A stretch of 64,000 bases of DNA from Oleiphilus messinensis (GTDB lineage: Bacteria; Pseudomonadota; Gammaproteobacteria; Pseudomonadales; Oleiphilaceae). The notes beneath the pieces are model-generated. The model saw nothing but the letters and a program-made list of their open reading frames with translations, was not told the origin of the DNA and made no database searches. The translations under genes were made by a program, and so were the position numbers. The stretch is taken from assembly GCF_002162375.1 (NCBI RefSeq), contig NZ_CP021425.1:5953276-6017275 (forward strand), written 5' to 3'. The first letter of the stretch is position 1. Every line of letters begins with the position of its first letter. Positions 3,880 to 41,491 of the stretch are shown piece by piece.

Positions 3880-4602
3880 GTGAAATATCAGAGCAGGCCC
3901 ATGACCACGCTATTCAATAAAGAAGACCGCATACTCAAACAGTATCGGGCTATTATCGAAACCACCGAGCATGAAGGGCATCCTCTGGTTCATGATTTGA
4001 CCGCGTTGCTAAGTCACTATGAAGAACTCTTGAGCAAGTTTGACCGGCTGACAAAAGTGAGTGATAAACAGCAAATATCACTCCATGAAATGGCGCGGGT
4101 TGATGGCCTGACCGGGTTGAATAACCGGAAATATCTGGAAGATTTTTTGAAATTCGAATGGAAGCGCGCATCGGATCTCGATGTGCCCATGGCCATGATC
4201 ATGGTCGATATCGACTACTTCAAGTTATATAACGATACTTACGGCCACCAGGCTGGGGATCGGTGCCTGAAACAAGTTGGCGAAGTGCTGGCGCAAACGG
4301 TTAAACGCTCATCGGACTTTGTTGCGCGCTATGGCGGCGAGGAATTCACCATTGTATTAACCGACTGTCGCCACCACTATGCGGTAGATCTGGCAGAAAA
4401 GATCCAGCGCGCCATCAGCACCGCAGAAATTCGCCATGCCGGTTCGAAGGTCAGTGAATATGTCACGCTGAGTATGGGCATTGCAGTCTATCAACCGGGC
4501 AAGGGCTCATCACCCTCAGCGCTGTTGAGCGCAGCCGATGAAGCACTCTACCGGGCCAAGGAAAGCGGGCGAAACCGGTTTCATCTGGGGCGCATCGACT
4601 AA
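3880..4602 (+). CDS. GGDEF diguanylate cyclase, SiaD-like (short coiled N-region plus GGDEF)
   Basis: 240 aa; DGLTGLNNRKY, RYGGEEF, intact I-site-like RxxD; small size and neighbourhood (SiaC/SiaB-like genes) fit SiaD. Confidence 0.75.
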   Translation: MKYQSRPMTTLFNKEDRILKQYRAIIETTEHEGHPLVHDLTALLSHYEELLSKFDRLTKVSDKQQISLHEMARVDGLTGLNNRKYLEDFLKFEWKRASDLDVPMAMIMVDIDYFKLYNDTYGHQAGDRCLKQVGEVLAQTVKRSSDFVARYGGEEFTIVLTDCRHHYAVDLAEKIQRAISTAEIRHAGSKVSEYVTLSMGIAVYQPGKGSSPSALLSAADEALYRAKESGRNRFHLGRID

Positions 4603-4617
4603 CCAGGACGCGGTATT

Positions 4618-5001
4618 CTAATCTGTTACCACCAGCTCGAAGGTGGCCTTGCGAACATCTTCGCGGAATTCTTCGCCAATTTCAGCCATGTAATCATCGT
4701 CTTCCGGATAAACCCACTTGATCACCACCCGGTTACCGGCACTTGCGGCTTCATCCATCAATTCCAGCAACTCCATCAGAATTCGTGCGGTGCTACTGTT
4801 GAAGTAGACAAACTCCAGCACCAATTCAATATCCGATGTGGATTGGGTTAACAGATGCGCTTGCAGCTTATCAACGGGCTCACGATAAAATTCCGTCACA
4901 TTCTCGGGATAGGACTCGCCCGAGATTCGGAAAACGTTATTTCCGAAGTCAAAATCAATTTCAGGTGTCCGGTCTGAACCCCTGATTTTTATCTGATCCA
5001 T
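4618..5001 (-). CDS. DUF1987 protein, SiaC-like phosphoprotein
   Basis: 127 aa; sequence MDQIKIRGSDRTPEIDFDF...ELVLEFVYFNSSTARILMELL typical of DUF1987/SiaC family; adjacent to SiaB-like gene. Confidence 0.65.
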   Translation of the reverse strand: MDQIKIRGSDRTPEIDFDFGNNVFRISGESYPENVTEFYREPVDKLQAHLLTQSTSDIELVLEFVYFNSSTARILMELLELMDEAASAGNRVVIKWVYPEDDDYMAEIGEEFREDVRKATFELVVTD

Positions 5002-5063
5002 ATCGTTTCCTTAGCTCGACGAATCCGTGCCCAAACAGGCACCATACACTTTGCGGAACCGCA

Positions 5064-5609
5064 TTATATATAAACCTTCAAATTATAAAATGCGCGCTTT
5101 TCGTCCAGCTCCACAAACCCGAAACTGAAATCCGATTTTGCACGCAGCGCAATCTCGATCAAGCCAACCCCCGCGCCTTTACTGCCATCCGGAATCGCCC
5201 CGTGGAGTCGTGACCGGTATTGGGCTTTCAGCTCGGGTCGATCCAGAGCCTGAATATCCTGCAATGCGGCGTCGATGCGCGCGACATCCGATATCGCAAC
5301 CGGATTTCCGCAATCGATATAAAACCGGTCACCCTCTTCCCCCATCGCGATCACACCACGGCCGAACTCAGTGCCATCATCGAGGGTACACCGCTCGAAG
5401 GAGTAATTCATAATATTCTGAATCTGTTCCACAAACAGCGCAAAGGCGGTTTGCCGGACTTTTTTATCCGCGTGGGCGAAAATGGCCGGTTTTTTCAACG
5501 CCTCCCCGACACTTAGCAACATTTGTTCGGTGATATAGCCGCTATAATAAAAATGCACACCGAGGTTCTGCATTTTCTGGTTAAGCGAATGGAGCGATAT
5601 AGACGACAT
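5064..5609 (-). CDS. SiaB-like serine/threonine kinase (RsbW/GHKL-like)
   Basis: Start MSSISLHS at 5609 with GGAGA RBS gives 181 aa; G-rich GSKGAGVGLIEIALR resembles GHKL G2 box; 4-gene context with DUF1987 and PP2C. Confidence 0.55.
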   Translation of the reverse strand: MSSISLHSLNQKMQNLGVHFYYSGYITEQMLLSVGEALKKPAIFAHADKKVRQTAFALFVEQIQNIMNYSFERCTLDDGTEFGRGVIAMGEEGDRFYIDCGNPVAISDVARIDAALQDIQALDRPELKAQYRSRLHGAIPDGSKGAGVGLIEIALRAKSDFSFGFVELDEKRAFYNLKVYI

Positions 5610-5740
5610 TCGTTCTCCGCCAGGGGATGGGTTAATACGATTGTTGAGATCGTTTTCAGCGCGAAAAAACCCCGGAACATTACCACAAATGCCTGAAGTT
5701 TTACCATACTTTACGCTATTGAGAGATTCGCAACCGATAA

Positions 5741-8536
5741 GTGATCCAGATAATGAAACAACCTGTCCATTTGGCAACAGTATGGCTACTCCTGCTACTT
5801 TTCTCCAGCTTTGGCCACACCACACCACCGCTGCAATTTGAGCACCTTACAACAGCCCATGGTTTGTCCAGCAATCTGGTCACCACGACCCTTCAAGACG
5901 CCCAAGGATTCCTTTGGGTGGGTACGGAAAACGGCTTGAACCGTTTCGACGGCTACGAGTTTCAAATTCACCGTCGCAACGCCGCCGCTTCAGAGACGTT
6001 GAATAGCAACCATATCACTCAACTTTTCCTGGATCAGTCCGGTCAACTCTGGGTCGGAACCGCTCGGGGTCTGAACCGGTATAACCGGTCACAAAACCGG
6101 TTTTCCACCATTCCGGCGTATCGCGATACAACCCCGGACTCGACGGTCGCCTTGAGCATCACCAGCCTGGCAGAATCTCAGGAACGGCTCTTTGTTGGGT
6201 CATCTCAGGGGCTGTTCCAGTTCAATCCCGACAAGCAGCAACTGGCACCCGTTTCTGCTCCCGAGCACATCGCCCCTGCACTGCTCGATTCCGAAGTCAG
6301 TGCGCTGTTGTTCGATAGCGATGGCTATTTGTGGGTGGGTACCCATGAGGGTTTACACCAATGGAACCCGGTGGAACAAACCCTGAAGACCTACAGGCAC
6401 GATGAGCAGGACGACGAACAAACAGTAGGTAAAAAGACAATAATCGATAATACCATTCAGGCATTGTATGAAGACCGAAAAGGTCAAATCTGGATCGGCA
6501 TAGATGGTGGCCTGTCCCGCCTGAATCCGGAGACAGGTGTGATCCGTAACTTCTACCATGGTGAGGACGGACACAGCCCGGAACTGGTCGGGGACGAGGT
6601 GACGAGTATTCTGGAAGATGCAAACGGTAATATCTGGATTGCAACAACAGAAGGCTTGACCCGCTACAACCCGGCGGACGAAACCTTCACTGCACTCATC
6701 CATGAACCGCAACTGGCGGACTCGCTCGCCCACAGCAAAACCCGCTCCCTGACCATCGATCGTTCGGGCATCCTCTGGGTTGGCACCCAGGGCGGTGGAA
6801 TCAGCCGCCTGAACCTTCAGCCCAAGGCATTCTACCGCGAACAACATCACCCGGAGCTGGAAGCGTCATTAGGTTACGACTCGGTTTTATCCTTTCATGA
6901 AGATCATGCCGGACGCATTTGGGTCGGCATGGAGGACGAGGGGTTCAACCGCTTTGATCCTCGCACCGGCACTTTTGAGCGTTTTGAGTATGAGGCTGAG
7001 GATTTTACGCTGGAAGAAACCACCGAGGGTATTTTTTATATCGACTCCGGTGGTATTCACAAAGATCGAGTGCGATCCATTCAATCGGACCAACGGGGAA
7101 ATCTGTGGATGGGCACCAGCGAAGGGTTGGAATACTTTGACGTTGAAAATATTCGCTTTCGCCACTTTCACCCCAAAGCCGGTCGGCCACATAGTCTCAG
7201 CCATGAAAATATTGGTGTTTTGCTACTCACGTCCGAAGATACATTGTGGATTGGGACGCAAGAGGGCGGTCTGAACAAGTTTAACCCTGAAACCTACGAA
7301 AACGAGATTTTTCGCTACCGGGAAAATGACCCGAACACACTGGGCAGCGACCGGATCACCGCACTCCTGCAAGATCAACAGGGTACGCTCTGGATTGGTA
7401 CAGAAGGCGGAGGTCTTAACCGCTTTGATGCCAAACAGGGTAACTTCCAACGCTTTGCCTTGCCGTTGAAAAATAATCAAGCTGCAGCGAGTAGCAATTC
7501 CATCTGGACAATTTACCAGGCAGAAGATCACCGCCTGTGGGTGGGCACCGATGAGGGGTTATACCAATTCAGTCCGGATTCCGGCACGTTCACCCCCTCA
7601 CCGCTCACGCTGAATGGCGAAGCAAACCGGGTGCTGGGTATTGTCGAGGATGATCACAGCAATCTCTGGTTAAGCAAGGAGAACGGCATTACCAAGTTCA
7701 CCCCCAGCTCCGGTGCGGTGCAGAATTTCAATGCGCGCAACGGCTTGCCCACTGACCAGTTTTTGCCCGGGGCGTACTATCGGAGCAAGGCGGGTGACAT
7801 CTATCTGGGTTCCAATCAAGGCATGATCCACTTCAAACCCCACGAGATTACCACTAACCAACACGTGCCGGATGTTGTCCTGACCAAGCTGGAAATTCTG
7901 AACAATGCGGTTACCCCTGCTAGCGACGACAGCCCATTGCAGGTTGATATCACACAGGCAGACAGACTCTCCCTCTCTTATCAGGATAAAGCCATCACCC
8001 TGACGTTTTCCGCCCTGGATTTTGCCAATCCGGAAAACAACCAATACGCCTACAAGCTTGAAGGTTTCGACCCTGACTGGAATTTCATCGGGCATCGACG
8101 GGTTGTGAGCTACACCAGCCTGCCGGGAGGGAATTACACATTCAAAGTCCGGGGCTCCAACAATGATCAGGTCTGGAATGAAGAAGGCATTAACCTGCCG
8201 ATATTTGTCGCCCCGCCCCCCTGGCTGACTTGGTGGGCCTACACCTTGTACGGTTTAACACTCATCGCGATCATCGCGGGTATTGCCCGCTACAGAACGC
8301 TGAAAATTGAACGGCAGTTAGTGGAGCAGGAAAAAGCGAACCGGATACTGGAGCACAAAGTTGCAGACCGCACCAAAGAACTAAACGTCAAGAACGAGCA
8401 ATTGTTCCGTTCCAATCAGAATATTTTGAGCAGTATTCGCTATGCCCAGAAAATCCAGCATTCCCTGCTACCCAACCAGTCCATGGTGCAACAGCTGTTT
8501 GGCGACTGTTTTATTGTTTGGGAACCGTTTTCATAA
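5741..8536 (+). CDS. SiaA-like sensor, N-terminal 931 aa: signal peptide, beta-propeller two-component-regulator repeats, Y_Y_Y domain, TM helix, coiled coil; truncated at entry to the PP2C domain by IS insertion
   Basis: Many repeats of the xWxGTxxGLxxxD Reg_prop motif, Y_Y_Y-like region ([35 protein letters not shown]), [20 protein letters not shown], then [16 protein letters not shown] typical of the first PP2C motif; ORF ends 3 codons after WEP. Confidence 0.8.
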
Positions 8537-8575
8537 ACCTGCTTAAACCTACTCAAGGTTTAAACGAGCCTATCC

Positions 8576-10231
8576 CTACAGCGCAGGGTGCGCGGAAAGC
8601 AGGGTTACGCTTTCCTGAATCAAGTCGGGACTCATGCCCGGTCTACCATCAAGGCGAGCCTCGACGGAGTAACTAACCCGATTCACACGACGAAAGTGAC
8701 GCCAGCCACTCAGAAAATCTAATGATTTTTCGAGTGGTTGGTACCAACGCTGAAGTTTGTTGTAATACTGATAATCCCCGAGCGCCATCCTTACAGGCGG
8801 ATGCTCGGTCTTAACGGTACCCTTCGCGTTAATACCAATGAGTTGTTTTGGCGGCTTTTCTTTAAAGCCATAATGCCGACGACCAATCACTAACGCGGCC
8901 GCGTGGTGATCTGAAAAACCGTGTCGATCGCGATACTTCATCCGCCCCAATAATGAGGTATAAGCCGGATTGACGTGATATAGGCGTATGCCGCGTTTAA
9001 TGCTTTGCGTTTCAATCAAGTCCTTGATCTTACCGTAAGCAAAGGCATTCAACATGCGGGCATACTGAGGATGATCCTGCTTTTGGTATTGCCGTTTCTT
9101 TTGCTGAAAATCCAGCTTTTCGATCACCACCGCTTTACCTTGCTGTGCGGCAAAGTCCATCAGGTCTCGTACGGCATCCCCAATAATAGCCGCTCGTTGA
9201 GCATCATTCTTATAGTGCAAAGGTAAGTCAAACGTTCGGTGTTGCAGTGGGTTACCGTTCCGATCCAGCTCGACGACCGCTAAGTGATCCGGGTTGACAT
9301 CCACACCAATGACACCTTGATCAGCATCGATCCACTCTGCTTGCGCTGTTGGTCCTGCCACTTCCACGCTAACGAGTAACCGCCAACCTTTTTTGTCTCG
9401 CTTAAATCGAAAACTCAGGGGTTGCCCTTTGATTGATTTATCGAGTTTTTTAACCTGATTCTGCCAGACGGCTTGGGCAATAGCCGCCTTACCATGCTTG
9501 AATTTCAGGCAATCAATGTTAATGGTCGTGCCGAACGTAGCGCGTAATTGATGGGGTACCAGGAGTTTTAGCTGGTAAGCATCATCTTGCTCACTGGGCG
9601 ATAGCTGGGCATTTTGACAGCCCCAGGATTCATCATGAGAACCCACCAATAGAAATTCGCGGTGTCGTGCTTCGTGCCAGCGTTGTTTCCAGCCTTCAAT
9701 GGCCGAACCCGTTTCTAACGCTTGACGCTCTTTCAGCAGCTTTCGACCGCCGAAACAAATGGGGGTTTTATTTGCCTGTTTTTCGGCCACCAAGGCGGCC
9801 TGCTTTTGCTGCCAACGATGCAGTTTCACTTCCTTCTGCCGTAGCGTGTTACGAAGTTGTTTTGCCTGTTGCGGGCAGCCTTTCTCTGCGACATGATCAC
9901 AGCGCTTCTTTAATTTGTTGAGCGTTTTCTCCAGCTGTTTGATTTTAACGTCCAGCGTCACCAATCGGTTGTTTCGATTGGTTTGGTAAGACTGGATTAA
10001 ACCTTTAATGCTTTGCCGGACGCCTTGAAACACCCGATAGCTGAACGGCATCCCCATTTCATGCATAAACTGGGTACGACTCAATTGCTGGGCTTTAGGC
10101 TTTTGTAAGTTAGCAAACCAACGAAACTTCACTTGATTCCACAGCTCGGCATAGTGGCACAATGCCGCATCCTGCTCATGAATCAAATTAAGCCGGGTTT
10201 CAAAGGTGAGTGTTTTCGTTAGCGTATCCAC
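8576..10231 (-). CDS. tnpB: TnpB (IS605/IS607 OrfB; RuvC-like RNA-guided nuclease family), 551 aa
   Basis: OrfB N-region, RuvC-like core, hallmark GIRLYHVNPAYTSLLG motif and C-terminal zinc-finger region. Confidence 0.85.
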   Translation of the reverse strand: MDTLTKTLTFETRLNLIHEQDAALCHYAELWNQVKFRWFANLQKPKAQQLSRTQFMHEMGMPFSYRVFQGVRQSIKGLIQSYQTNRNNRLVTLDVKIKQLEKTLNKLKKRCDHVAEKGCPQQAKQLRNTLRQKEVKLHRWQQKQAALVAEKQANKTPICFGGRKLLKERQALETGSAIEGWKQRWHEARHREFLLVGSHDESWGCQNAQLSPSEQDDAYQLKLLVPHQLRATFGTTINIDCLKFKHGKAAIAQAVWQNQVKKLDKSIKGQPLSFRFKRDKKGWRLLVSVEVAGPTAQAEWIDADQGVIGVDVNPDHLAVVELDRNGNPLQHRTFDLPLHYKNDAQRAAIIGDAVRDLMDFAAQQGKAVVIEKLDFQQKKRQYQKQDHPQYARMLNAFAYGKIKDLIETQSIKRGIRLYHVNPAYTSLLGRMKYRDRHGFSDHHAAALVIGRRHYGFKEKPPKQLIGINAKGTVKTEHPPVRMALGDYQYYNKLQRWYQPLEKSLDFLSGWRHFRRVNRVSYSVEARLDGRPGMSPDLIQESVTLLSAHPAL

Positions 10232-29530: not shown

Positions 29531-30319
29531 TCAACAATAATTCGCAAACTTCATTTCTCGATCATTGTAATCGACCGGCATCATAGGTAATCGAATATAC
29601 GCCTTGATGATTGAAGTCGTTCTCTGCTTTCGTGCAACTACAGTACCTTCTCTGCTACCCGCCGCGTTTGTATTACCTTCTATCGTTGAGATCAGAGAGC
29701 CTTTGTTTTCCGTCACAATTCCGATATGTGAGAAAGTAAATACAACAATATCTCCCCGCATGGCTTTGGTAAATGTATCTTTTGGGGTAAACACCAAACA
29801 GTTTTTACGGGTTGCCCACTCATTTAGAAAACGCTGTACTGAAGGTTCTCTCGGCGGGATGAGTGAAGCATAGTAGGGAGACTGCGAACATAACTTCTGA
29901 ACACAAAGTGAAACGAAAGCAGCACACCACGGATAACCATCCGTCCTGCCATTGATAACTAAATCATCTGCCTTGAATATCTCCAACATTTTGGGACTAT
30001 TACCGGCTAGATTATTACCCGTTTCAGTGGTTCCGATATATTGTTCGGCAATGTCGGCCAATAAATGCTGAGGAAGCGAGTTTGAAAAATGAGGCAATGT
30101 TGCCTGAGACAATGCAAACCAAGTTCCACGTCCGACAATACCGTCAACAGATAGCTTAGCCTCAACTTGAAATCGCTTGACGGCTGCCACTGTCTGCGCG
30201 CCAAAGTCACCATCAACACTCAGGTTTGGTGAAGGTGAGAGCAATCGATTCAAGAGCTTTTGTAAGGTCATCACGTCAGCGCCACGGGAGCCTTTTCTGA
30301 TCGTTTTTTTCTGGGTCAT
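29531..30319 (-). CDS. peptidoglycan-binding (PG_binding_1) plus C-terminal Cys/His peptidoglycan hydrolase-like domain
   Basis: N-terminal GADVMTLQKLLNRL...DGDFGAQTVAAVKRFQ PG_binding_1 motif; C-terminal conserved Cys (YPWCAAFVS) and His (FSHIGIV) of CHAP/NlpC-like amidases. Confidence 0.55.
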   Translation of the reverse strand: MTQKKTIRKGSRGADVMTLQKLLNRLLSPSPNLSVDGDFGAQTVAAVKRFQVEAKLSVDGIVGRGTWFALSQATLPHFSNSLPQHLLADIAEQYIGTTETGNNLAGNSPKMLEIFKADDLVINGRTDGYPWCAAFVSLCVQKLCSQSPYYASLIPPREPSVQRFLNEWATRKNCLVFTPKDTFTKAMRGDIVVFTFSHIGIVTENKGSLISTIEGNTNAAGSREGTVVARKQRTTSIIKAYIRLPMMPVDYNDREMKFANYC

Positions 30320-31421: not shown

Positions 31422-32579
31422 CTAATTTTTCACCGCTGTGGGTGCTTTACCGGTCAATCTCACCATATCATTCATCACGGAATCGAGGCCGCCATAAACA
31501 CTGATGTGATCGATTTTTTCAACCACTTTCTCCAGAGTTTCAAGTTCCTTGAGACGCAGGAGGGTGGCGTTGTTTTCCATCATTTTTGCCGTGTTGCTCA
31601 GGGAGCGTGTCGCGGCGGTTTCTTCCCGACGTTTGATCAGGTTTGCTTCTGCCGCTTTTTGCGCCTGTACAACCTGATTCAGGATTTCTTTCATTTCACC
31701 GGGCAGGATGATGTCCTTCACCCCCACTCGATCCAGAAAGATTCCGTAGTCTTTCAGTGATGCGTGGCACTCGTCATAGATGACGCTGGAAACAACATTT
31801 TTGTCGCTCAGAAGTTCATCCAGTGTCCGTGTACCAATCACTTCCCTCAGCGCAAGCTGCAGGCGTTTGTAGATGTAGTCCCCTACATTTTTCAGTTTTT
31901 GCGCAGCAACTTCCACATCCACCAATTGATAAACGGCATTCAAATTAACCCGCAGGCTCACCCGGTCTTTCGTCAGAATTTCCTGACCGGAAATTTCCAC
32001 CATTTGCAGTTTCAAATCGTATAACTGCACTTGCAGATCGCGGTTGAACAACCAGTAGCCGTAACGTCCTGGTTTCAGAGTCTGGATCCATTTTCCATTC
32101 TCATACAACAGCCCCACATAGCCATCCGGAACCAGCGCATTCAGGATCGTTTCAGCTCTCGCCGTACGATTCATCCCGGCACGGAGCAAGTGTGAAAGCA
32201 TGGGTTCTGCAATTGGCTGCAACACATCCAGCGAAAAGACTTTGACTTCCAGATTCAAACTATCCTTCCAGGTAACCAGACGCTCGCCGGGTTGCAGCAG
32301 CTGTTGAATTTTGTTGTCGAGATAAACGACACCGACTTCATTTTCCTGCATCATGACGCTATCAACATGGTTGGCAAATTCTTCTTTTTGCAACAACACG
32401 TCCAGCAACTCATGGGTAATACCAGAGCGCGTTACCGCCACAGAGAAAAATGAAAGCTTTTGCCCCATATCCCAGAAACGGTAAGTACCCGGTGTCAGAA
32501 CCTGTTGAAATTGTCTTTCCCTGTACATCAGTACGCGTTCATTATCTGCGACCAGTACTTTTCGTGTCATGCCGAACAT
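31422..32579 (-). CDS. SPFH/band-7 domain protein with extra N-terminal domain
   Basis: C-terminal half matches SPFH pattern (TKDRVSLRVNLNAVYQLVD...LALREVIGTRTLDELLSDKN...GIFLDRVGVKDIILPGEM...AEANL coiled coil). Confidence 0.6.
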   Translation of the reverse strand: MFGMTRKVLVADNERVLMYRERQFQQVLTPGTYRFWDMGQKLSFFSVAVTRSGITHELLDVLLQKEEFANHVDSVMMQENEVGVVYLDNKIQQLLQPGERLVTWKDSLNLEVKVFSLDVLQPIAEPMLSHLLRAGMNRTARAETILNALVPDGYVGLLYENGKWIQTLKPGRYGYWLFNRDLQVQLYDLKLQMVEISGQEILTKDRVSLRVNLNAVYQLVDVEVAAQKLKNVGDYIYKRLQLALREVIGTRTLDELLSDKNVVSSVIYDECHASLKDYGIFLDRVGVKDIILPGEMKEILNQVVQAQKAAEANLIKRREETAATRSLSNTAKMMENNATLLRLKELETLEKVVEKIDHISVYGGLDSVMNDMVRLTGKAPTAVKN

Positions 32580-32925
32580 GGCGTTACTCCTTGATTACAC
32601 GAAGCTCAATCATTGCTTCTATTTCAAATAAAACGGGTGAGGGGTAGCAGGGTCAACCGACATGCTTGAACGCCCTCTGATGATCCTCCCGATCTACTGC
32701 TTGGATCAACTTGCGGGACAGTTCCGCAGGGGCTCTACAACTCCCCCATTTGAAACACATTCCGTTATGCCAGGCGTAGCCTGATACGCTGCTCACCCGC
32801 GTTGGTACTACTGGCCGGACACGCAACCAACAACTTTGGTGCCCGGAATTCATACCGCTTTTGGGGCAAAGCCCCGTTCTCGTTAATGAGTCTAGGGAGT
32901 CGAACCCTAACCTTTCGGTTTACCG

Positions 32926-32999
32926 TGGCTTGTACAGGAGTTGAACCTGTGACCTATCAGTTATGAGCTGACTGCTCTATCCAACTGAGCTAACAAGCA
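32926..32999 (-). tRNA. tRNA-Met (anticodon CAU; elongator-like), acceptor 5' base irregular
   Basis: Reverse complement reads GCTTGTTAGCTCAGTTGGATAGAGCAGTCAGCTCATAACTGATAGGTCACAGGTTCAACTCCTGTACAAGCCA: D-arm GCTC/GAGC, anticodon loop CTCATAA, T-arm ACAGG-TTCAACT-CCTGT; the 5'-terminal acceptor position mismatches. Confidence 0.6.
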
Positions 33000-33319
33000 A
33001 GTGGTCGTGGAAGGACCATGCGAATACGTTTTGGCGGTACATCCGGTTTCAGAGAAACTGATGCCGGGCTGGGCTGTGAACCAGCACCCAGGGCCGTTTT
33101 GCATTCAACAGGGTTATTTCAAGAGCGGTGCCAATTCATCAATTCCTATCTGAAAATAGTTTTTATTAGCTTATTTTCAATTAGTTAAGATAATATTTGA
33201 GTTGGTCATGGGAATTCTGAAGCGGTAAATTACTGATAAAAAGTTATCAATCTGGATATAATTTTATCTAAAACGATTAATACATTTAGAGCACGTTCCA
33301 TTCTCGAGTTCTCCTGCCA

Positions 33320-33620
33320 AATTTAATAGTCCAGCGCTACGCTTAATGATTGCCGCCCTTGGAGATGCCAGCCAATTTGCAAATGGGTGGCAAATATCCG
33401 CGTGGCTTGGATTGACACTAAAACCAGTTGAGTGGATGCCTTCAACGAGTTACCGCTCGATTCATGATGCAAAACGGAATGTGAGTTACTTCCTGATGAA
33501 TTATTACAACTGGTAAAGACCGCATCAGTTCAATGATGGGCTACCACCGGTAAGCGCTGAAAAATTCGCTCAAAAAGTGTCCGGGTTTTATTGGCCACTA
33601 CAAAGAGCTTATTGATGATT
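33320..33620 (+). pseudogene. IS3-family transposase OrfB C-terminal remnant (frameshifted)
   Basis: Translations across frames give ...NIRVAWID... and YFLMNYYNWxRPHQFNDGLPPVSAEKF (IS3 OrfB C-terminal signature); no intact ORF. Confidence 0.5.
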
Positions 33621-33810
33621 ACCGGAAGAAACGTATGTTTCGGGCTCAAATGGATGGTTTTTTGGACATAGAGTCGCTTGAAGCGACTCTAACGGATATA
33701 AACACAACTAAACCAAGCAGAGATGACTAGCAGTGCCTGTCCCGGATTTACCCAGTCTCCGCTATTCTCGTTTCATATTGATCAGAGTAAAATCAATCTG
33801 CCTCTAAGTT

Positions 33811-34200
33811 TCAAGCCCCTTTAACTTTCAAAAGAGTATTTATTACATCCTCTGACGAACCAATATTTCTTGCATACTCAAGCACGCTTCTGCCATCATC
33901 ATTTTTTGAATTTACACGTGCCCCAGATCTTATTAACAACTCTAAAACCTTTGGATTGCCGCCTATTACTCCGTTGAATATAGGTGAACATCCATTGTCT
34001 CCTTTTGCGTTAACATCCGCTCCTGCATCTATTAAAATCCTCGCTGATTCGAGATCCCCCCACGAACAAACCGTATGTAATGGAGTATCATCCATGAGGT
34101 TTACACAATTGACTCCATTCAACTCGATGCCAAACCAAGATGCTGTATCTGAACAGCGTGCAAGTACACTGCTTAAGTCATTTTTCATAACTAAAAACAC
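33811..34200 (-). CDS. ankyrin-repeat protein, candidate immunity protein for upstream RHS-CT toxin
   Basis: Three ANK repeats (DDTPLHTVCSWGDLESARILIDAGADVNAKGDNGCSPIF...); 10-nt overlap with toxin gene end. Confidence 0.7.
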   Translation of the reverse strand: MFLVMKNDLSSVLARCSDTASWFGIELNGVNCVNLMDDTPLHTVCSWGDLESARILIDAGADVNAKGDNGCSPIFNGVIGGNPKVLELLIRSGARVNSKNDDGRSVLEYARNIGSSEDVINTLLKVKGA

Positions 34201-34886
34201 TCCTGCTTACAGTTTCGCTTAATATCTTCCACTGCATTGATTATTCGCTGCTTCACTTGTTGCAACTGACCCTGATGTTTGTTCCAAGCAGAACTTCCAG
34301 ACTCATCCCATTTATCTGACCAATTCTTCCGTAAGTCGTAACAAAGTTGAGCTTGATCTCGTTTTCTTTCTGCGTCTATACAAGGGTCGCCACTTGGAGG
34401 AGGTGGTGGCTGGTCACATATTTTGTGATACCTAGCATGCTGAGCATCCTTTCGTGCCGAATCTCCTGGCATGAGCGCAAGAGCTGCTATCCCTATACCG
34501 GCAGCAACATCCATAGGGCCAGGCACAGGAGAGTCAGACAATGCTAAAGCGATAGCAGCTTCAGCATCTAATCCATAAGGATCGACATAAATTACCGGGT
34601 TTTGATTTGCGTACCCATAAGTATTGATCCCGCCCCCTAGGCCAACAGGATCACTTTGCAAATACCGGCCTAACGTGGGATCGTAATCCCGATAGTAATT
34701 GTAGTAATACCCGGTCTCCCGATCATGATATTGCCCAGGAAAGCGAATATCCTGTCCGATGGTGTTGACCACTTCGGTGACTTCGCCGAAGGGGGTGTAT
34801 TCGCCTTTCCACACCACATTTTGATTTTGATCTGTAAGCACCTGAAGGGTACCCAGGTGGTCTGTGTGGACGAAGTAGAGTTTGAT
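34191..34886 (-). CDS. orphan RHS-core C-terminal toxin module (5'-truncated, no signal peptide or proper start)
   Basis: Frame reads IKLYFVHTDHLGTLQVLTDQNQNVVWKGEYTPFGE...[43 protein letters not shown] (RHS repeat-associated core, TIGR03696-type) then a unique 100-aa tip; upstream in-frame stop at 34887; homology to 38861..39739 breaks at 34893. Confidence 0.65.
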   Translation of the reverse strand: MKLYFVHTDHLGTLQVLTDQNQNVVWKGEYTPFGEVTEVVNTIGQDIRFPGQYHDRETGYYYNYYRDYDPTLGRYLQSDPVGLGGGINTYGYANQNPVIYVDPYGLDAEAAIALALSDSPVPGPMDVAAGIGIAALALMPGDSARKDAQHARYHKICDQPPPPPSGDPCIDAERKRDQAQLCYDLRKNWSDKWDESGSSAWNKHQGQLQQVKQRIINAVEDIKRNCKQECF

Positions 34887-34971
34887 TCAGCATGCGCTAA
34901 TCCGCATCACCCACCGACTCTTAGTTCTCGGACTAATTAGGCAGAGTGTCTTACCCTGTGGTTAGAAAAGA

Positions 34972-35460
34972 TTAAGCAAAATTAAAGCGCACCCGATCGC
35001 CTATTTCTAAATCAAGAGCATCCAAATTGTCTTTCACCTTTAAGTCACCATCGATAGAGAAACAATTAATCCGACAAAGATTGTTAAATACTTCCAATTC
35101 TGCTTGGAAACAAAATCCTTCTTTAAATTCGGATGCCAAGAGTAATTTATCGTTTAATAAGACTTCTGTTCTGATGACTTGTACAGGATGAACTATACGC
35201 TTGTCTCCTTGACTTAGCTCTAAAGGAACATCAGAAGGTAAAATATTTGGTGGGCCTATCGTAATATCCAAAAAATCACCTTTCTGAAAGTTTTCATGAA
35301 TCCACATTCCACCTCTTCCATCAACTAACTTAAATGAGCAGGCAAAATTCACTGATCTGTCGGCATTGCTGATCAAAAGAGCTTTTAAGCTACCACTTGG
35401 CCCAGTGACTAGAACCTGCTCATCAAATTTACTGGACGAAACTATAAAGGAGTTGATCAC
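34972..35460 (-). CDS. hypothetical protein, candidate immunity for CT module 35461..36006
   Basis: 162-aa ORF starting immediately after toxin stop, same strand. Confidence 0.4.
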   Translation of the reverse strand: MINSFIVSSSKFDEQVLVTGPSGSLKALLISNADRSVNFACSFKLVDGRGGMWIHENFQKGDFLDITIGPPNILPSDVPLELSQGDKRIVHPVQVIRTEVLLNDKLLLASEFKEGFCFQAELEVFNNLCRINCFSIDGDLKVKDNLDALDLEIGDRVRFNFA

Positions 35461-36006
35461 TCAATGGCTCCAGGGGTTTACTGTCGGAACTTTTGGTAGA
35501 TTGGGATTAGTTTTATTAAATTCGTTCACTTTCCTGTTGTGCTGTTTAACATAATCCAAATAATTTTTGTTGCCGTGATCTTTATTGAATACATCCGGTC
35601 CTTTTTTCAAGTAATCGCTAATTTCATTCAATTCTTTGGCTTGGATGTCTACATCACCAAGGTGCCTTTTCAGGATGTCATCGAGAGCGTTGTATGGAAT
35701 ATCGCTCGCTCCAAAGGGATCATTTGCGGCTTCGTCGCTATATATTTTTCTTAAGTCCGGACAATGGTTCAGTTTTGGAAGCTTAAATTTCCATGGGCCG
35801 GGAAATATGTCTATCGGATTAATTGCATCAGGATGGTCAGGAACTGGATCTTGCGGCAATCCTGCAACAGTTAATAATGCTCCAGCCCCCCACAACAATA
35901 GCACTGGTACGGCTTCGCCAGTTGGATCTGTATACTTAACAGGGTTTTGAAATGTATATCCATAGGTATTTAGACCCCCAGCCAACCCAATAGGATCACT
36001 TTGCAA
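35461..36006 (-). CDS. orphan RHS-type C-terminal toxin module (starts inside the DPxGL motif)
   Basis: Begins [31 protein letters not shown] then unique 150-aa tip; only about 5 codons of core homology upstream (GRY), then in-frame stop. Confidence 0.55.
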
Positions 36007-36216
36007 ATACCGCCCTACTCAGAAGTCGGTTAGAATTCTGATCCAAATAACAAATCAATCATTATTCCAAAGCCACCCAATGCAAGCAGCCACAACAATA
36101 CAACCGGTGCTTGCATAAATCAGTAACACATCACCAATTAGACCTGCCCAGTAAGTGCCACCAATCACTAAAACGATGCCAAATAAAATTCTGTAGAGTG
36201 TTGCAGCCTTCAAAAT

Positions 36217-36606
36217 TTAGTAACCACAAGCAAAGTTTGGATTACTTGACCTGCAACTGAATGCACACGCAGCTGTTGATAGTCCTACATAACCAGCTGA
36301 AGCTGCACCACACATTTTCCCAGCCCCTTGTGAGATTAGACCTGAATTCTCACCAACAAATAACGCTGCACCTCCCCAACTTAGCTCTGCAGTATTAGTG
36401 GCGCCCATACATGCAGTCAAGCATGAGTAATAAGAATCTTCACACCGCCAATCATGTTTCGAGCCAGTTCCATTATTCATTGCACACTCCGCAGTAGCAC
36501 ACTCTTTTCTGTTATCTGTATCGCCACTGTTGCACATCGCTCCATTTGGTAACCCCATTTCTGCTGGACACGGCTCAGGCTTCAACCCTCGGCCTTTGTG
36601 GATCAC
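36217..36606 (-). CDS. Cys-rich (19 Cys/129 aa) putative toxin tip, preceded by frameshifted DPIGL core remnant
   Basis: Upstream 36640-36700 encodes [15 protein letters not shown] in another frame; junction contains G7 and C7 homopolymer runs. Confidence 0.35.
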   Translation of the reverse strand: MIHKGRGLKPEPCPAEMGLPNGAMCNSGDTDNRKECATAECAMNNGTGSKHDWRCEDSYYSCLTACMGATNTAELSWGGAALFVGENSGLISQGAGKMCGAASAGYVGLSTAACAFSCRSSNPNFACGY

Positions 36607-37180
36607 TATAGATAAGGGGGGGTTCCTAAAACATAAGTATTAATCCCCCCCGCCAACCCAATAGGATCACTTTGCAATTACAGTCCGCCTAGGCGAAATT
36701 CTAGCTATATCTGGCTACAATCCCAACGCATTCAATTACTTAAAAACCTCAAAACCCAACATTCTTTCACTCTAGCAGCTCACAATCCCCGACGCACTTT
36801 TTCCCTTAACTTTTATCATCGTCCGACTTGGTTTTTGCTCTTACGAACATGATTAAACAGACACTATTTGTCACTGTCGCGATATTCTCAATCCCAACCA
36901 TTCTTATTAATTCGATTATTTGTTCCATTATTCCTGTCCCCTTTTTTTAGACGACCCTTATTCTGTAGTCTGCTCAGATAATGCAAACAAGTAACCTGAC
37001 CATAGGTTTGGGCAGGTTAAATTTGGGCTTGCATCTGCTGACATTTTGATAAAGTCTGCCTAGCGGATCATTAGTTAAAGGGTCATCGGTCGGTGACCCT
37101 TTAACTCTTATAAGGAATAACGTGGGGGATTTAGGGCTTTTCTGAAGGGAAACAGGAGGCCAAAACCTCCTGATATTTAG

Positions 37181-37411
37181 TTAAGACTGGATAAGATGGA
37201 AGTAATGTTGAAAGATTTTGATGTAACGCTGCCAGCTATCTAACCGCTCCCAGGCTTCAATGACGGTATAACCTGCCGGTAAAAACTCCATGCGGTCGAG
37301 TACAAAGGCTGCCGCTATTTGTTCTCCGGTACTGGCTCCCCTGCTGCCACGGTTTTGTAGTTCGTTTGCCACATCGATGATCTTTTCAATTTCCCATTTC
37401 ATTTTATTCAC
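37181..37411 (-). CDS. hypothetical small protein (76 aa)
   Basis: ORF only; hairpin AGGAGGCCAAAACCTCCT just downstream of stop. Confidence 0.3.
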   Translation of the reverse strand: MNKMKWEIEKIIDVANELQNRGSRGASTGEQIAAAFVLDRMEFLPAGYTVIEAWERLDSWQRYIKIFQHYFHLIQS

Positions 37412-37699
37412 TCCTGTTAGTTTTATCGTTCGGGATCAAACCCGCTTCCGCTGTTGTATTGAGCCAGCAGCATCGCGCGCAGCCCCGTCAAGGGGGCTTT
37501 TCAGCGTAGCGGCCCTTGACGGGGCGAGCACGGTGCCACAATGCGCGAGCAACAGAGGGAGCCTTTAACGAAGCCGGGTACCCCTGCCCCCCAGCGGGGG
37601 CAAGGGGAGAAACAAAGGTTTTAAAGTGCGCTTGCGCCAGCCTTAGTTGTTCCCCTTGGGGCTAGGGGTAAACAAACCACCGCGGAGCTACGACATCCG

Positions 37700-38545
37700 A
37701 ACGCCAATACGCGTGAATGGGCTGGCACCAAGGCCAGTTTAATACGGCACTATTGGCCCACTTTTTAGCCGCCTTTAAGCAGGGCAAGCGTATTGGTGGG
37801 CGGGGGAGGAGCGGGAGAGGTGGAAGCTGCGCGCTCTATTGGCTTACCTGCAGCGACATCGTGATCAAGAAGGAACAGGAAGGCTAGGGGCGCTCTGTGA
37901 TTGAGCAATTGGCAAAGTATTTATCGAGCGAATTCCCTGGTGTGCAGGGCTTTTCCGCGCGGAATTTATGGCGGATGCGGGCATTTTACCAAGCTTATCC
38001 CAAAGCGCCTGAATTTCTGCCACAAGCTGTGGCAGAAACCGGGACAGAACCCAGTCTACCCGCCCAAATCACGCTATCACCCTGGGGACACCTGATCACC
38101 TTGATCGAGAAGGTCAAAGTCCCAGTCGTTCGACAATGGTACGCCCAAGCCGCTCTGGAATACCGTTGGTTTGGGGCCATACTGGTCCATCAGATCGAAT
38201 CACGGCTATATGACCGGCATGGCAATGCAGTCACCAACTTTACACATACTTTATATCGACCTCCTGTTTTATCACCTCAAGCTACGCTGCTATGTCGTGA
38301 TTGATCTCAAGATACAGGACTTCAAGCCAGAGTTTGCCGGCAAGATGAACTTTTATCTGTCCGCTGTGGATGATTTGTTACGGCACCCAACCGACAACCC
38401 AGCATATGCTTGGTTCTATGTAAATCCAACAACCGCATCGTGGCCGAGTATGCCCTGCGGGATGTGAACAAGCCGGTGGGCGTGGCCACCTATTTGACTG
38501 AGGCTTGCCGGACGCATTGCGTTCCAGTTTGCCAGATATTGAGTC
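37700..38545 (+). pseudogene. DUF1016 (YhcG-like, PDDEXK nuclease-like) gene, inactivated by in-frame stop and frameshifts
   Basis: Pieces ALYWLTCSDIVIKKEQEG*G-RSVIEQLAKYLSSEFPGVQGFSARNLWRMRAFY, DLLFYHLKLRCYVVIDLKIQDFKPEFAGKMNFYLSAVDD, IVAEYALRDVNKPVGVATYLTEA lie in three frames. Confidence 0.6.
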
Positions 38546-38600
38546 ATTGGAGGCCACGCTGGCGAAGACTGATAAACCGAAATAGACATAAGTGCCTGTC
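38345..38600 (+). repeat. direct repeat copy 1 (3' end of DUF1016 gene), about 90 percent identical to 40100..40330 with a 24-nt indel
   Basis: Alignment by eye: ccggcaagatgaacttttatctgtccgctgtggatgatttgttacggcacccaaccgac... recurs at 40100. Confidence 0.75.
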
Positions 38601-38621
38601 CCCACTGGTTTGTTTGCGTTC

Positions 38622-38864
38622 TTATTTTTTTCTCATTAAGAAAAGATTATACAAAACCAGAATCACAATAATCACAGGCCATGATACTAAGAACACAGTA
38701 TAAGCCATGCTCCCTGGTGTCCACCCATCTACATAGTTTCTCTCGTAAACCAACATCAGCAACCAATCTACCGGATACACTATTATGCCTGGAGCAACTA
38801 TAACTAATAAATACACAACAACCAGAGTAAAAAGAAGCCTTCTGGGGAACTTTCTTTTATTCAT
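38622..38864 (-). CDS. small two-TM membrane protein, candidate immunity for 38861..39739
   Basis: 80 aa, two hydrophobic helices, 4-nt overlap with toxin gene stop. Confidence 0.4.
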   Translation of the reverse strand: MNKRKFPRRLLFTLVVVYLLVIVAPGIIVYPVDWLLMLVYERNYVDGWTPGSMAYTVFLVSWPVIIVILVLYNLFLMRKK

Positions 38865-39739
38865 GGAATCGGTACCGTTGGACTGACATTCCGTAAATTA
38901 TTCCGGTTCAAATAATACGCTGAATCTATTTGATTCTTCAGATTATTTGAGTAAGAAATACCGCCCCCAGAAAGATTACCTATGTCTGGTAAACCAGCTC
39001 CACCCGCGTTTAGAACTCCAGTTGCAGCGTCAACACAATTTCCCCATGATCCCCTGTATTTGTCATTGTTTAACTGATTCTTTGCTTGTCTATCGGCAGC
39101 AGCTTCATTGGGTAAATCTACATAAACAGCATAATCGGGAGGACGGCCATATAAATCAACATCTTGATCATAGGAGCGATACTTAGAGTCAAACGGGTTC
39201 GCTCCTTGCTTGTCGGGATGATGACTAACATAAGTTCCATCATTTGTAAGAACCGCTGCATGCCCGTAAGCAGAATCATAGTTATTCCCCGAAGCGTTAG
39301 TGTAGCGCCCAGGCTTCCAAACATACAATGTGGCTAAACCATGTGGGTCAATATTGGTCAATGGATTTTGGAGAACATATCCATAAGTATTCAGACCGCC
39401 TCGCAAGCCAACAGGATCACTTTGAAAATATCTTCCTAACGTGGGATCGTAATCCCGATAGTAATTGTAGTAATACCCAGTCTCCCGATCATGGTATTGA
39501 CCGGGAAAGCGAATATCCTGTCCGATGGTATTGACCACTTCGGTGACTTCGCCGAAGGGGGTGTATTCACCTTTCCAAACCACATTTTGATTTTGATCTG
39601 TAAGGACCTGAGGGGTACCCAGGTGGTCGGTGTGGACGAAGTAGAGTTTTGATTCAGCATTCGCGGTGCCGGACAGCATGGCTAAGGAAACAGTCAGCAG
39701 GCAGGCGATGTTTTGTAAGATGTCTTTCAGATTTTTCAT
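38861..39739 (-). CDS. secreted RHS repeat-associated core domain protein with C-terminal toxin tip (signal peptide, no Rhs shell)
   Basis: MKNLKDILQNIACLLTVSLAMLSGTANA signal peptide; ESKLYFVHTDHLGTPQVLTDQNQNVVWKGEYTPFGE...[43 protein letters not shown]; unique 155-aa tip; AAGGA RBS. Confidence 0.75.
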   Translation of the reverse strand: MKNLKDILQNIACLLTVSLAMLSGTANAESKLYFVHTDHLGTPQVLTDQNQNVVWKGEYTPFGEVTEVVNTIGQDIRFPGQYHDRETGYYYNYYRDYDPTLGRYFQSDPVGLRGGLNTYGYVLQNPLTNIDPHGLATLYVWKPGRYTNASGNNYDSAYGHAAVLTNDGTYVSHHPDKQGANPFDSKYRSYDQDVDLYGRPPDYAVYVDLPNEAAADRQAKNQLNNDKYRGSWGNCVDAATGVLNAGGAGLPDIGNLSGGGISYSNNLKNQIDSAYYLNRNNLRNVSPTVPIP

Positions 39740-39749
39740 GACAATGTCC

Positions 39750-40105
39750 TTATTGTGCCAAGGCTAATATTTCTGCGGAATTCAGGCTGCTGCCGTCGGC
39801 AAACTCAATAAATTCAATACGGTAGACTGTATAAATAACGGCGTGCAATATCGTAATACGATCTCCACTAAGTTCCCCTTGCGCGTCCAGTAAATCTATC
39901 TGGATATGTGCGCCGACCTTACTAAACACCAATTGTTCAGGTGTGATCCCTTCACCGAATACGATTTTATCAGTTTGCCCCCGGTAATTATCGTTGTCAC
40001 GAATGGTGTCAATGCCATCCCCCCGTTCAAAGTAGTAGGTATCAGCACTCGCAAATTCAATCAGGGTGCCATCACCCGGGCCACCGGTAATTTGCTGGCA
40101 AGGTG
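39750..40105 (-). pseudogene. fragment of a T1SS-secreted (RTX-type) protein C-terminal secretion domain
   Basis: ITGGPGDGTLIEFASADTYYFERGDGIDTIRDNDNYRGQTDKIVFGEGITPEQLVFSKVGAHIQIDLL...DRITILHAV...IEFADGS matches GDGxDTI...DxIxF..GI...L.F type I secretion C-terminal target pattern; N-terminal 80 codons of the ORF are antisense of the DUF1016 repeat (not real). Confidence 0.5.
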
Positions 40106-40330
40106 AACTTTTATTTGTCCGCTGTGGATGATTTGTTACGGCACCCAACCGACACCCCAGCATAGGCTTGATTCTATGTAAATCCAACAACCGCATCGTG
40201 GCCGAGTATGCCTTGCGGGATGTGAACAAGCCGGTGGGTTGGCCACCTATTTGACTGAGGCCTTGCCGGATATTGAGTTGTTGGAGGCCACGCTGGCGAA
40301 GACTGATAAACCGAAAGAGACATAAGTGCC
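40100..40330 (+). repeat. direct repeat copy 2 (isolated 3' end of DUF1016 gene)
   Basis: See copy 1; encodes ...NRIVAEYALRDVNKPVG...LTEALPDIELLEATLAKTDKPKET* with a frameshift. Confidence 0.75.
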
Positions 40331-40403
40331 TGTCCCCATTGTCTTGCGTCAAGAATTATGTTGATGCGTTTTACGCATTACGTTACATTCGCTATAAATA
40401 CTT

Positions 40404-40601
40404 ATGTCAAGGCGTACTCCGAACATAGGCATGCACATACCACTTATTGAGAAGCTGATACAACTCAGCGATATTCTGGGAGTTTCGCTGGATTATCTGG
40501 TAACCGGCAACAAACCAACGGCTAAGGAGGTTATTCGCTATGACGATTCCAGAGCAAAACGCGCAGTCCTTGTTGGAGAAGATTCAATCATTACCGCTTG
40601 A
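40404..40601 (+). CDS. XRE-type HTH C-terminal fragment (truncated regulator/antitoxin)
   Basis: IQLSDILGVSLDYLVTG resembles last helices of XRE HTH; no N-terminal half. Confidence 0.3.
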   Translation: MSRRTPNIGMHIPLIEKLIQLSDILGVSLDYLVTGNKPTAKEVIRYDDSRAKRAVLVGEDSIITA

Positions 40602-41029: not shown

Positions 41030-41491
41030 TCAAGCTTGCGCACGCTTGCATTGATCACAAATGCAGTCCAGTTCCAGCTGGGAGTTCAGGAGATGGTAAC
41101 CTGCTTCTTCAACGTTAACCTGAAGTGTCTTCACGATCTCACTGGAAATGGCAATTTCCTTTACGCGCCGACATTGACGACAAATCAGGAATTGCGGTAC
41201 TTGATGATCATGGCGACAGAGTATGTGGGAACAAGCGACAAACTTGTTCTCCGAAGAGAGTTTGTGCACTAACTGCTCGGAAATGAGAAAATCGAGAATA
41301 CGATAAGCGGACATGGGCGGCATTGACTTCTCCGCATTCGCATTATAGCGATCTACAATTTCGTATGCGGAAAGCGGGCCCTGTGTATCAACCAGTATTG
41401 ACAATATTTGCGCACGCTTCTCAGTCAGTCGACTACCACTCTTCGTGCATTTTTCAGCTGCACGTTTGATTACTTCTTGGGTGTGCTCCAT
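41030..41491 (-). CDS. zur: Fur-family regulator, Zur-like
   Basis: 153 aa; HHxxH region and two CxxC pairs (CRQCRR, CDQCKR); adjacent to znu genes. Confidence 0.8.
   Translation of the reverse strand: MEHTQEVIKRAAEKCTKSGSRLTEKRAQILSILVDTQGPLSAYEIVDRYNANAEKSMPPMSAYRILDFLISEQLVHKLSSENKFVACSHILCRHDHQVPQFLICRQCRRVKEIAISSEIVKTLQVNVEEAGYHLLNSQLELDCICDQCKRAQA

Follow-up and report, generated by a model that had tools for sequence, protein, structure and literature searches.

The usual description of Rhs, Tc and teneurin cages is that they fold round their toxin, either in a single chain or while TcB and TcC are co-expressed in the cytoplasm. Canonical Rhs orphans lack translation starts, and their expression needs recombination. 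WapA and the other YD-repeat toxins that depend on the general secretion (Sec) pathway, together with bacterial teneurin-like proteins, have a Sec signal peptide, an Rhs core, DPxGL autoproteolysis and polymorphic tips (PMC13018210). In Bcn-A of Xanthomonas perforans, three open reading frames (ORFs) are all required, namely ORFA (an RHS/teneurin-like protein of 1398 aa), ORF2 (124 aa) and ORF4, and ORF5 confers immunity; ORF4 has 290 aa, begins with a signal peptide and resembles WapA, RhsA and Tc toxins (PMC7259588). Supernatants contain the Bcn-A activity, most of it in the fraction larger than the 100-kDa size cut-off, and a type II secretion (xpsD) mutant has lost it; the authors took ORFA for the toxin and ORF4 for an accessory, and did not describe the locus as a split Rhs (PMC7259588). 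Here we compare with these systems the gene OLMES_5273 of Oleiphilus messinensis, which lies in a stretch of 64,000 nucleotides (contig NZ_CP021425.1, positions 5,953,276 to 6,017,275 of the forward strand; this whole stretch is called the window, and coordinates of O. messinensis features are counted from its first letter). OLMES_5273 probably encodes the plug-toxin subunit, now stranded, of an Rhs polymorphic-toxin system that is split and exported by Sec; the shell gene of this system has been deleted at this locus.

The protein encoded by the ORF at 38861..39739 is 100% identical to OLMES_5273. The original prediction, made from the letters of the window, saw in it a signal peptide placed straight before the end of an Rhs core and followed by a toxin tip, and this arrangement and its coordinates are right, with the minus strand as the coding strand. 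The gene and its parts are as follows.

38861..39739, minus strand: OLMES_5273, 292 aa, ATG start
39656..39739, minus strand: predicted signal peptide codons (residues 1-28, MKNLKDILQNIACLLTVSLAMLSGTANA), from sequence, hydrophobicity, a helix modelled by AlphaFold2 (AF2) and homologue comparison
39335..39655, minus strand: Rhs C-terminal core or "plug" (residues 29-135, with D108, D131 and DPHGL), from matches to PF03527, TIGR03696, NF041261 and the PDB
38861..39334, minus strand: C-terminal toxin (residues 136-292 and the stop codon), predicted to be of a permuted papain-like or NlpC-P60 type with His160 and Cys235
38622..38864, minus strand: candidate immunity gene, 80 aa with two transmembrane helices, its ATG overlapping the toxin TGA (ATGA) and with a homologue in the same position

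The Pfam domain RHS (PF03527) matched residues 33-67 with 52.6 bits (cut-off 27.9) and TIGR03696 (Rhs_assc_core) matched in full, with model positions 1-76 of 76 on residues 59-135 and 89.3 bits (cut-off 32.5). From NF041261 (RHS_core) only positions 1148-1261 of the 1261 in the model were matched. A phmmer search of the PDB aligned residues 27-135 with the last ~109 residues of solved Rhs cages, those of Tse5, RhsA, RhsP, Tse15, TccC3 and one teneurin-like protein. In the Tse5 chain 8cp6_B the matching residues are 1013-1121 (E 3.5e-24), and the chain terminates opposite L135, which agrees with the predicted core of about 105 residues ending in DPHGL. Because the profile and PDB matches cover the cage end alone, only the C-terminal plug of an Rhs cage is present in OLMES_5273. 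Pfam found no RHS_repeat (PF05593 / TEN_YD-shell) in the polypeptide, and tblastn with five shell proteins found no YD repeats in the whole window. RHS was the sole Pfam match, without PAAR, VgrG or prePAAR at the N-terminus, where the 28-residue signal-peptide-like segment stands in place of a domain for coupling to the secretion system of type VI (T6SS).

R95, D108, D131 and G134 were among the invariant positions in an alignment of 69 family members. D108 and D131 are 23 residues apart and may form the Asp pair of an aspartyl protease, their spacing being taken to match that of Tse15 (D1369, D1391) and TccC3 (D651) as given in PDB titles. The autoproteolysis site is predicted between L135 and A136, directly after DPHGL. 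The AF2 model of the whole 292-aa protein had a mean predicted local distance difference test score (pLDDT) of 64, and Foldseek recovered only Rhs cage ends.

All three regions of a Sec signal peptide can be seen in residues 1-28, which present an n-region rich in K, a hydrophobic stretch (Kyte-Doolittle mean of 2.47 in the best window of 10 residues) and the junction ANA-ES. AF2 modelled residues 2-23 as a helix with pLDDT >90. The predicted cut is likely at ANA-ES, after residue 28, as the claim of a cleavable signal peptide had placed it. An AAGGA Shine-Dalgarno sequence lies 7 nt 5' of the ATG and the TAA stop of the upstream ORF is 10 nt from the start codon. A crude scan of the upstream DNA gave no convincing sigma-70-like promoter.

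To place this N-terminus within its family we used an exhaustive HMMER search over 1.84 billion cluster representatives at 50% identity, which returned 1749 proteins at E <= 1e-30. Among the best 150 of these 1749, 134 are shorter than 350 aa. We then applied a crude signal-peptide test (basic n-region, hydrophobic window scoring 1.7 or more, -1 and -3 both occupied by small residues, and an end 2-5 residues before Y[YF][VIF]H[TN]DHLGTPQ), which was passed by 88 of the 120 best homologues and by 60 of 87 further cluster representatives. Several additional homologues that failed the test have signal peptides obvious to the eye. An alternative heuristic anchored on a PFG motif was poorer, and that run served for the length count alone. 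The N-termini of the family are unrelated in sequence and present signal-peptide features at the same position before the core. Public annotations call these proteins "RHS repeat-associated core domain-containing protein" or "golvesin C-terminal-like domain-containing protein". Since the homologues are mostly short and have unrelated signal-peptide-like N-termini at the same distance from the core motif, the start of OLMES_5273 is not fortuitous. The gene could otherwise have been a duplicated tip of a conventional full-length rhs gene with a chance ATG and a chance hydrophobic stretch, given that orphan rhs tips are common and that the neighbouring modules described below are such fragments. 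However, the position and not the sequence of the N-termini is conserved across the family, the ribosome-binding site is correctly spaced, and a full-length rhs gene with a matching core, which the original prediction had named as the finding that would speak against it, has no representative from O. messinensis among the best 120 core matches. This explanation is largely refuted and we consider it highly improbable.

We read 11 homologue neighbourhoods, and in 8 of these one or more full YD-shell genes without a core lie upstream of the plug-toxin gene; 2 have truncated 3' shell remnants and 1 has no shell. In the 8 neighbourhoods the shell genes number one to three, are on the same strand and together contain DUF6531 and YD repeats but no core domain. 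The spacing between shell and plug genes goes from a 4-nt overlap to 78 nt, with the exception of L002 and its intervening ORF. The shells found are these.

L001: shell of 1263 aa, 2-nt gap to the plug gene
L002: shell of 1233 aa, then a signal-peptide-bearing ORF of 132 aa (9492-9890), then the plug gene
L004 (Hahella sp. CCB-MM4): shell in three ORFs, 4345-9986, 14-nt gap to the plug gene
L009 (Oleiphilaceae metagenome-assembled genome): shell of 550 + 1378 aa, 4141-9949, 21-nt gap to the plug gene
L084 (Oceanicoccus sagamiensis): shell of 1289 + 272 aa
L085 (Marinobacter sp. V034): shell in three ORFs, 3949-9948
L087: shell of 556 + 1236 aa, 4511-9922
L091: shell of 1600 aa, 4-nt overlap with the plug gene
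L089: 5'-truncated shell remnant, 505 aa
L090: 5'-truncated shell remnant, 187 aa

The shell is divided in L009, L004, L085 and L087, where two or three ORFs share it out as a DUF6531 N-terminal part and a YD C-terminal part. The shell pieces that we inspected mostly begin with a signal peptide, and this includes the second-half ORFs of these four loci; a 437-aa ORF of L085 is without one. Because most divided pieces have their own signal peptide, the cage may come from three or more exported chains. The half-shell family also includes Pseudomonas aeruginosa proteins of ~889 aa, with about 3000 member sequences each (P0162, P0169).

The separate shell proteins end just past the final shell strand ("...EYIYLNGxPVA"; "...RETIYLNGVPVAV", "...ETVYLGSTPVAQL"), and this end is followed by a tail or an accessory domain (Golvesin_C, TSP3, He_PIG, CBM, PPC-like, or RTX with HCBP_related). 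The mature N-terminus of the plug starts exactly at this stopping point. In the unsplit relative P0135 the shell runs contiguously into the core ("...YLYLGEQAIAMKVSGNRLYYVHNDHLNTP"), and in P0190 and P0131 an accessory domain is inserted at the same shell/core junction within a single chain. The split loci look like the inserted state of P0190 and P0131 to which a stop codon and a new signal peptide have been added. Taken from these sequences, the shell in this family appears to be supplied in trans and not dispensed with. The term "shell-less" used in the original prediction is therefore correct for the polypeptide and for the window; it does not extend to the family, which has separate core-less shell genes (8/11) or remnants of these (2/11).

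Some plug-toxin genes are present in arrays. The Oceanicoccus sagamiensis locus (L084, 8337-16504) contains five genes with near-identical signal-peptide-plus-core N-termini (MRRITACIKPVLWVIVTVFVATTA[R/S]AEIGTYYIHNDHLGTPQ...), differing in one residue over the 70 aa shown; four have differing toxin tips and one ends within the core. Fragments of BrnT/BrnA toxin-antitoxin genes are interspersed in this array. L001 has four signal-peptide-plus-core genes. Array members distant from any shell keep the same N-terminus, and the full-length members are complete genes able to be exported, unlike classical rhs orphans.

The hydrophobic N-terminus might instead be an uncleaved membrane anchor, or a linker inside a shell-plug fusion that arises by read-through or frameshifting. 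Only very short gaps do indeed separate shell and plug genes, and in two single ORFs (L006, 245-4243, and P0318) one frame runs from a shell through a linker that has hydrophobic segments and a signal-peptide-like stretch to a core-toxin. Genuine fusion, loss of a stop codon or an error of assembly may account for these two, and the hydrophobic segment that comes first in them resembles a C-terminal sorting or anchor signal of the shell. Stop codons stand between the genes elsewhere and the frame of the plug relative to the shell is +2 in L001 and L004, +1 in L085 and 0 in L009 and L087. Since this relation differs between loci, programmed read-through or frameshifting is unlikely and we rejected it. 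Small AxA-like residues at -1 and -3 are also a recurrent feature 2-5 residues ahead of the core, every plug gene starts with an ATG of its own (and OLMES_5273 has its Shine-Dalgarno sequence), and array members at a distance from any shell retain the same N-terminus. We therefore judge an uncleaved anchor or linker to be very unlikely.

The O. messinensis locus has retained a piece of such a shell gene between two copies of a repeat.

39750..40088, minus strand: 3' remnant (112 codons) of a YD-shell gene with RTX nonapeptide and HCBP_related, from PF06594 and alignment with the L009 shell
40088..40346, plus strand: second copy of the 3' end of YhcG/DUF1016, the breakpoint that truncates the shell gene, from direct repeat alignment
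37897..38612, plus strand: YhcG/DUF1016 pseudogene, the 3' 280 bp of which (38330-38612) are the first repeat copy, from DUF1016_N, YhcG_C and alignment

In the upstream ORF, genuine coding sequence is confined to the part from 40088 down to 39750. This fragment presented 33% identity (E 7e-10, BLASTP/tblastn) to the L009 shell, in the first of the RTX/HCBP_related modules of its C-terminal extension, and is the sole part of the window matched by any of the five shell proteins. The core-less shell P0133 terminates in the same type of module. A word-based homologue search with the HCBP fragment returned only the fragment itself. By these comparisons the fragment is the tail of a lost shell protein. 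It had been read at first as an RTX/type I secretion fragment and a possible vestige of a former carrier protein. A vestige it is, but the carrier is the shell protein itself, and nothing that we have seen points to type I secretion because the relatives' shells that end in RTX/HCBP_related carry N-terminal Sec signal peptides.

The YhcG/DUF1016 gene, for a PDDEXK nuclease, is spread over three frames within 37897-38703 (DUF1016_N, YhcG_C 59-110 and YhcG_C 113-143) and is convergent with the toxin module. The direct repeats of ~280 bp at 38330-38612 and 40088-40346 are 92-95% identical with one indel of 23-24 nt, and bracket a unit of 1.48 kb made of the shell tail and the plug-toxin and immunity genes. 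This A-X-A' layout suggests that a circle was integrated by single crossover or that a duplication was followed by a deletion, and both would fit. The expected "orphan" of a split system is a piece of the shell 3' end with a complete plug-toxin/immunity pair, and this is what the locus contains. The same truncated-shell state is shared by L089 and L090 (2/11 relatives). Because the shell gene has been deleted here, OLMES_5273 is best seen as a stranded module and not as evidence of shell-free delivery, and the different delivery route, one of two options in the original prediction, gains no support from it.

Several points weigh against a stranded subunit of a split system. In the L086 neighbourhood a plug-toxin gene and a small gene stand as a pair amid housekeeping genes, without a shell in the surrounding 10 kb. 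OLMES_5273 is intact despite the loss of its shell and could work alone. Assembly in trans, cleavage of the signal peptide, autoproteolysis and the export route are all steps that we infer. Finally, Bcn-A, the closest experimental analogue and the sole experimental support, is a well-founded lead which was likened to the family through the description in its paper and not by sequence. Perhaps, then, the protein is an autonomous toxin, exported by Sec and free of any cage. Its core of ~105 aa would act only as an intramolecular chaperone or as a pro-domain that cleaves itself, and the toxin would be set free in the periplasm or medium. Such a toxin would account for L086, for the conserved catalytic Asp residues, and for an ORF, ribosome-binding site and immunity gene left intact at a locus where the shell gene is gone. 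It would leave without explanation the shell gene or remnant directly upstream in 10 of the 11 neighbourhoods, the mature N-terminus that begins where separate shells stop, and the requirement of Bcn-A for both the ORFA shell gene and ORF4. In addition, the catalytic-motif segment (residues 107-134) was modelled in isolation by AF2 with pLDDT <50. The fact that a plug-toxin gene stands alone is weak evidence for a shell-less toxin, because with signal peptides of their own a distant shell gene would suffice. A cage-free toxin is in our opinion quite unlikely.

Downstream of OLMES_5273 there are three orphan modules, in a stretch of low GC content.

34191..34877, minus strand: orphan module 1, core and a different toxin tip, 86% DNA identity to OLMES_5273 over 300 nt and 89% by tblastn
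33811-34200, minus strand: candidate immunity gene of orphan 1, an ankyrin-repeat protein (Ank domains)
35461..36018, minus strand: orphan module 2, the last ~35 core residues and a toxin tip, from the ORF list, DNA alignment and tblastn
34972-35460: candidate immunity ORF downstream of orphan 2
36217..36686, minus strand: orphan module 3, a core fragment (36632-36686) and a Cys-rich toxin tip, from the ORF list and DNA alignment
36055-36213: small transmembrane ORF of 52 aa after orphan 3
32925-32999, minus strand: tRNA-Met gene bordering the low-GC stretch
41030-41491: Fur-family regulator ORF with an operon beyond, the other border of the low-GC stretch

These modules are without functional signal peptides and we call them older. 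Orphan 1 retains the last signal-peptide codons (NAESK, in 34841-34900); it has lost 1 nt from an A-run and has neither an n- nor an h-region. Because these terminal codons remain, orphan 1 was once a complete exported module. Orphans 2 and 3 hold only late core, so that OLMES_5273 is, as first stated, the sole intact module of the array. The suggestion that orphan modules would recombine into this gene is also plausible for orphan 1, given its 86% DNA identity. The Cys-rich tip of orphan 3 (36217-36606, minus strand) had no Pfam match. The GC content of the stretch that holds the array (33000-40500) is about 0.40-0.47, versus 0.50-0.55 outside, and with the tRNA-Met gene at one border and the Fur-family ORF on the other side this is a genomic-island layout. 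Beyond the tRNA gene are a PG_binding_1 + CHAP protein and an SPFH/Band-7 protein, at 29531-30319 and 31422-32579 (both minus strand). With its YhcG pseudogene, frameshifted orphan and truncated shell, the locus is a decaying island.

OLMES_5273 is still translatable, but its delivery in O. messinensis is probably not to be expected unless a compatible shell is encoded elsewhere in the genome. The module might still function if such a core-less shell were present, for example in an Rhs-holding genomic island. The design would permit use in trans (in Oceanicoccus a single shell is followed by several plug-toxin genes), and the ORF is undamaged, with translational coupling to the immunity gene. 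The O. messinensis genome paper mentions Rhs proteins in genomic island GI4 (PMC5847120). However, a search with the L009 shell gave no O. messinensis protein among its best 120 matches, a result that is suggestive only, and besides the orphan of the window itself there was no other O. messinensis protein among the best 120 core matches. The Rhs proteins of GI4, if they exist, would thus not be close relatives of the shell or core. The absence of a convincing promoter in the crude scan and the visible decay of the surrounding locus also argue against a module in use, and we regard its function in O. messinensis as unlikely.

The toxin tip of OLMES_5273 (residues 136-292) has 157 aa, close to the ~155 predicted, and it matched no Pfam family even at E <= 5. 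In nine homologous tips the GH and NC motifs, which correspond to H160 and C235, are invariant. An AF2 model of the toxin, from an alignment of toxin tips only, had a pLDDT of 72.9 and a predicted template modelling score (pTM) of 0.73, and by this model the tip has a permuted papain-like / NlpC-P60-PPPDE-type hydrolase fold with a His...Cys pair. Its relative P0026 has weak Pfam matches to Lnb_N and Peptidase_C97; the BLASTP comparison of the OLMES_5273 and P0026 tips was not significant (E 0.28). A target in the envelope, such as peptidoglycan or lipid, is plausible. Among homologues with a common core the toxin tips vary.

The 80-aa protein encoded next to the toxin has two hydrophobic helices, basic ends and a loop of ~20 residues. 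It presented 39% identity (E 4e-17) to the product of an 86-aa gene directly 3' of the closest toxin homologue (P0002, in L088). By homology and position it is likely the cognate immunity protein of the OLMES_5273 toxin. A membrane immunity protein with a periplasmic loop fits, since the toxin would pass through the producer's own periplasm.

From the favoured reading of OLMES_5273 as the stranded plug-toxin of a split system, we can propose how such a system would work. Each piece would be exported by Sec and its signal peptide removed by signal peptidase I, here after ANA28. In the periplasm the plug would complete the shell and bring the toxin along, and autoproteolysis of the D108/D131 type would cut after DPHGL135. 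The complex would then leave the cell, possibly by type II secretion as reported for Bcn-A, and the accessory, adhesin-like domains of the shell may mediate adhesion. The papain-like His/Cys enzyme would reach the envelope of a competitor, and the 80-aa membrane immunity protein would guard the producer. At the locus of one relative a T2SSG-family gene is present at a distance of about 10 kb, which is no proof of type II secretion.

Multi-piece Rhs designs are common in marine bacteria. We suggest, with a confidence just short of even, that a large clade of mainly marine Gammaproteobacteria (Hahella, Marinobacter, Oceanicoccus, Oleiphilaceae) builds a cage of two to four Sec-exported chains assembled outside the cytoplasm. 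A plug-toxin with the core of ~105 residues would dock in trans, arrays of plug-toxin genes would load one shell without recombination, and the product would be a diffusible or surface-displayed bacteriocin, possibly secreted by the type II system. A separately exported plug-toxin raises the question of whether a YD cage can close and load after export, and the family suggests that the shell/core junction tolerates both insertion of domains and gene fission. If true, a cage made from separately exported chains would mean that Rhs/Tc-type cages can be assembled and loaded in a new way. It would explain the diversification of cargo in Gram-negative Sec-dependent Rhs toxins by complete plug-toxin genes, which are expressed by themselves and are not silent orphans, the genetics of Xanthomonas Bcn-A would have to be re-interpreted, and the segment of about 105 residues would offer a modular handle for foreign cargo in Rhs cages. 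For O. messinensis itself the result is more modest, that is, a decaying island with a stranded module.

How then does this locus compare with the systems already described? Single-chain Rhs effectors such as those of the T6SS (Tse5, RhsA, RhsP, Tse15) share with OLMES_5273 the core, the DPxGL boundary, a polymorphic tip and an adjacent immunity gene, and like these effectors it is accompanied by downstream arrays of displaced modules with DNA homology in the core. Canonical Rhs proteins differ from it in their PAAR, VgrG or prePAAR N-termini and their contiguous shell of ~1000 aa, and canonical orphans do not have the start codon and signal peptide which OLMES_5273 possesses without a shell. 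In WapA and the teneurin-like proteins the signal peptide heads one long shell-bearing chain, whereas that of OLMES_5273 directly precedes the plug. OLMES_5273 has the core, the DPxGL motif, the polymorphic tip and the immunity gene of an Rhs toxin and is neither a canonical single-chain Rhs nor a TcC.

In our literature searches we found no description of an Rhs plug-toxin with its own signal peptide or of separately exported shell pieces, and the Bcn-A paper alone was relevant. Matched by description, Bcn-A likewise has a signal-peptide protein of ~290 aa (292 versus 290 aa) with Rhs similarity and a membrane immunity gene downstream, and in the family as in Bcn-A a large RHS protein precedes small ORFs. 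The 132-aa ORF of L002 is comparable to the 124-aa ORF2 of Bcn-A, and because the two occupy the same position a conserved small accessory protein may exist. Unlike OLMES_5273, ORF4 has a tip with two transmembrane helices, which is a different toxin, and the large partner is missing at the OLMES_5273 locus.

In Tc toxins several alternative TcC cargo subunits can serve one partner. TcC gives roughly 650 cocoon residues, and the Tc subunits are without Sec signal peptides, assemble in the cytoplasm and are delivered by TcA. Like TcB/TcC (matched in the PDB search as 4o9x and 6h6e), the family described here would make an Rhs-type cocoon of two polypeptides, with a toxin subunit that ends in the core, the aspartyl autoprotease and a hypervariable toxin. 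Unlike TcC, OLMES_5273 contributes ~107 cage residues, the split point is different and the pieces would be Sec-exported; among the genes called in the neighbourhoods that we examined there was no TcA or TcB (SpvB, beta-propeller) gene. By analogy, the logic of the split Rhs is nevertheless most like that of TcB/TcC, with a cage of several chains and interchangeable cargo subunits.

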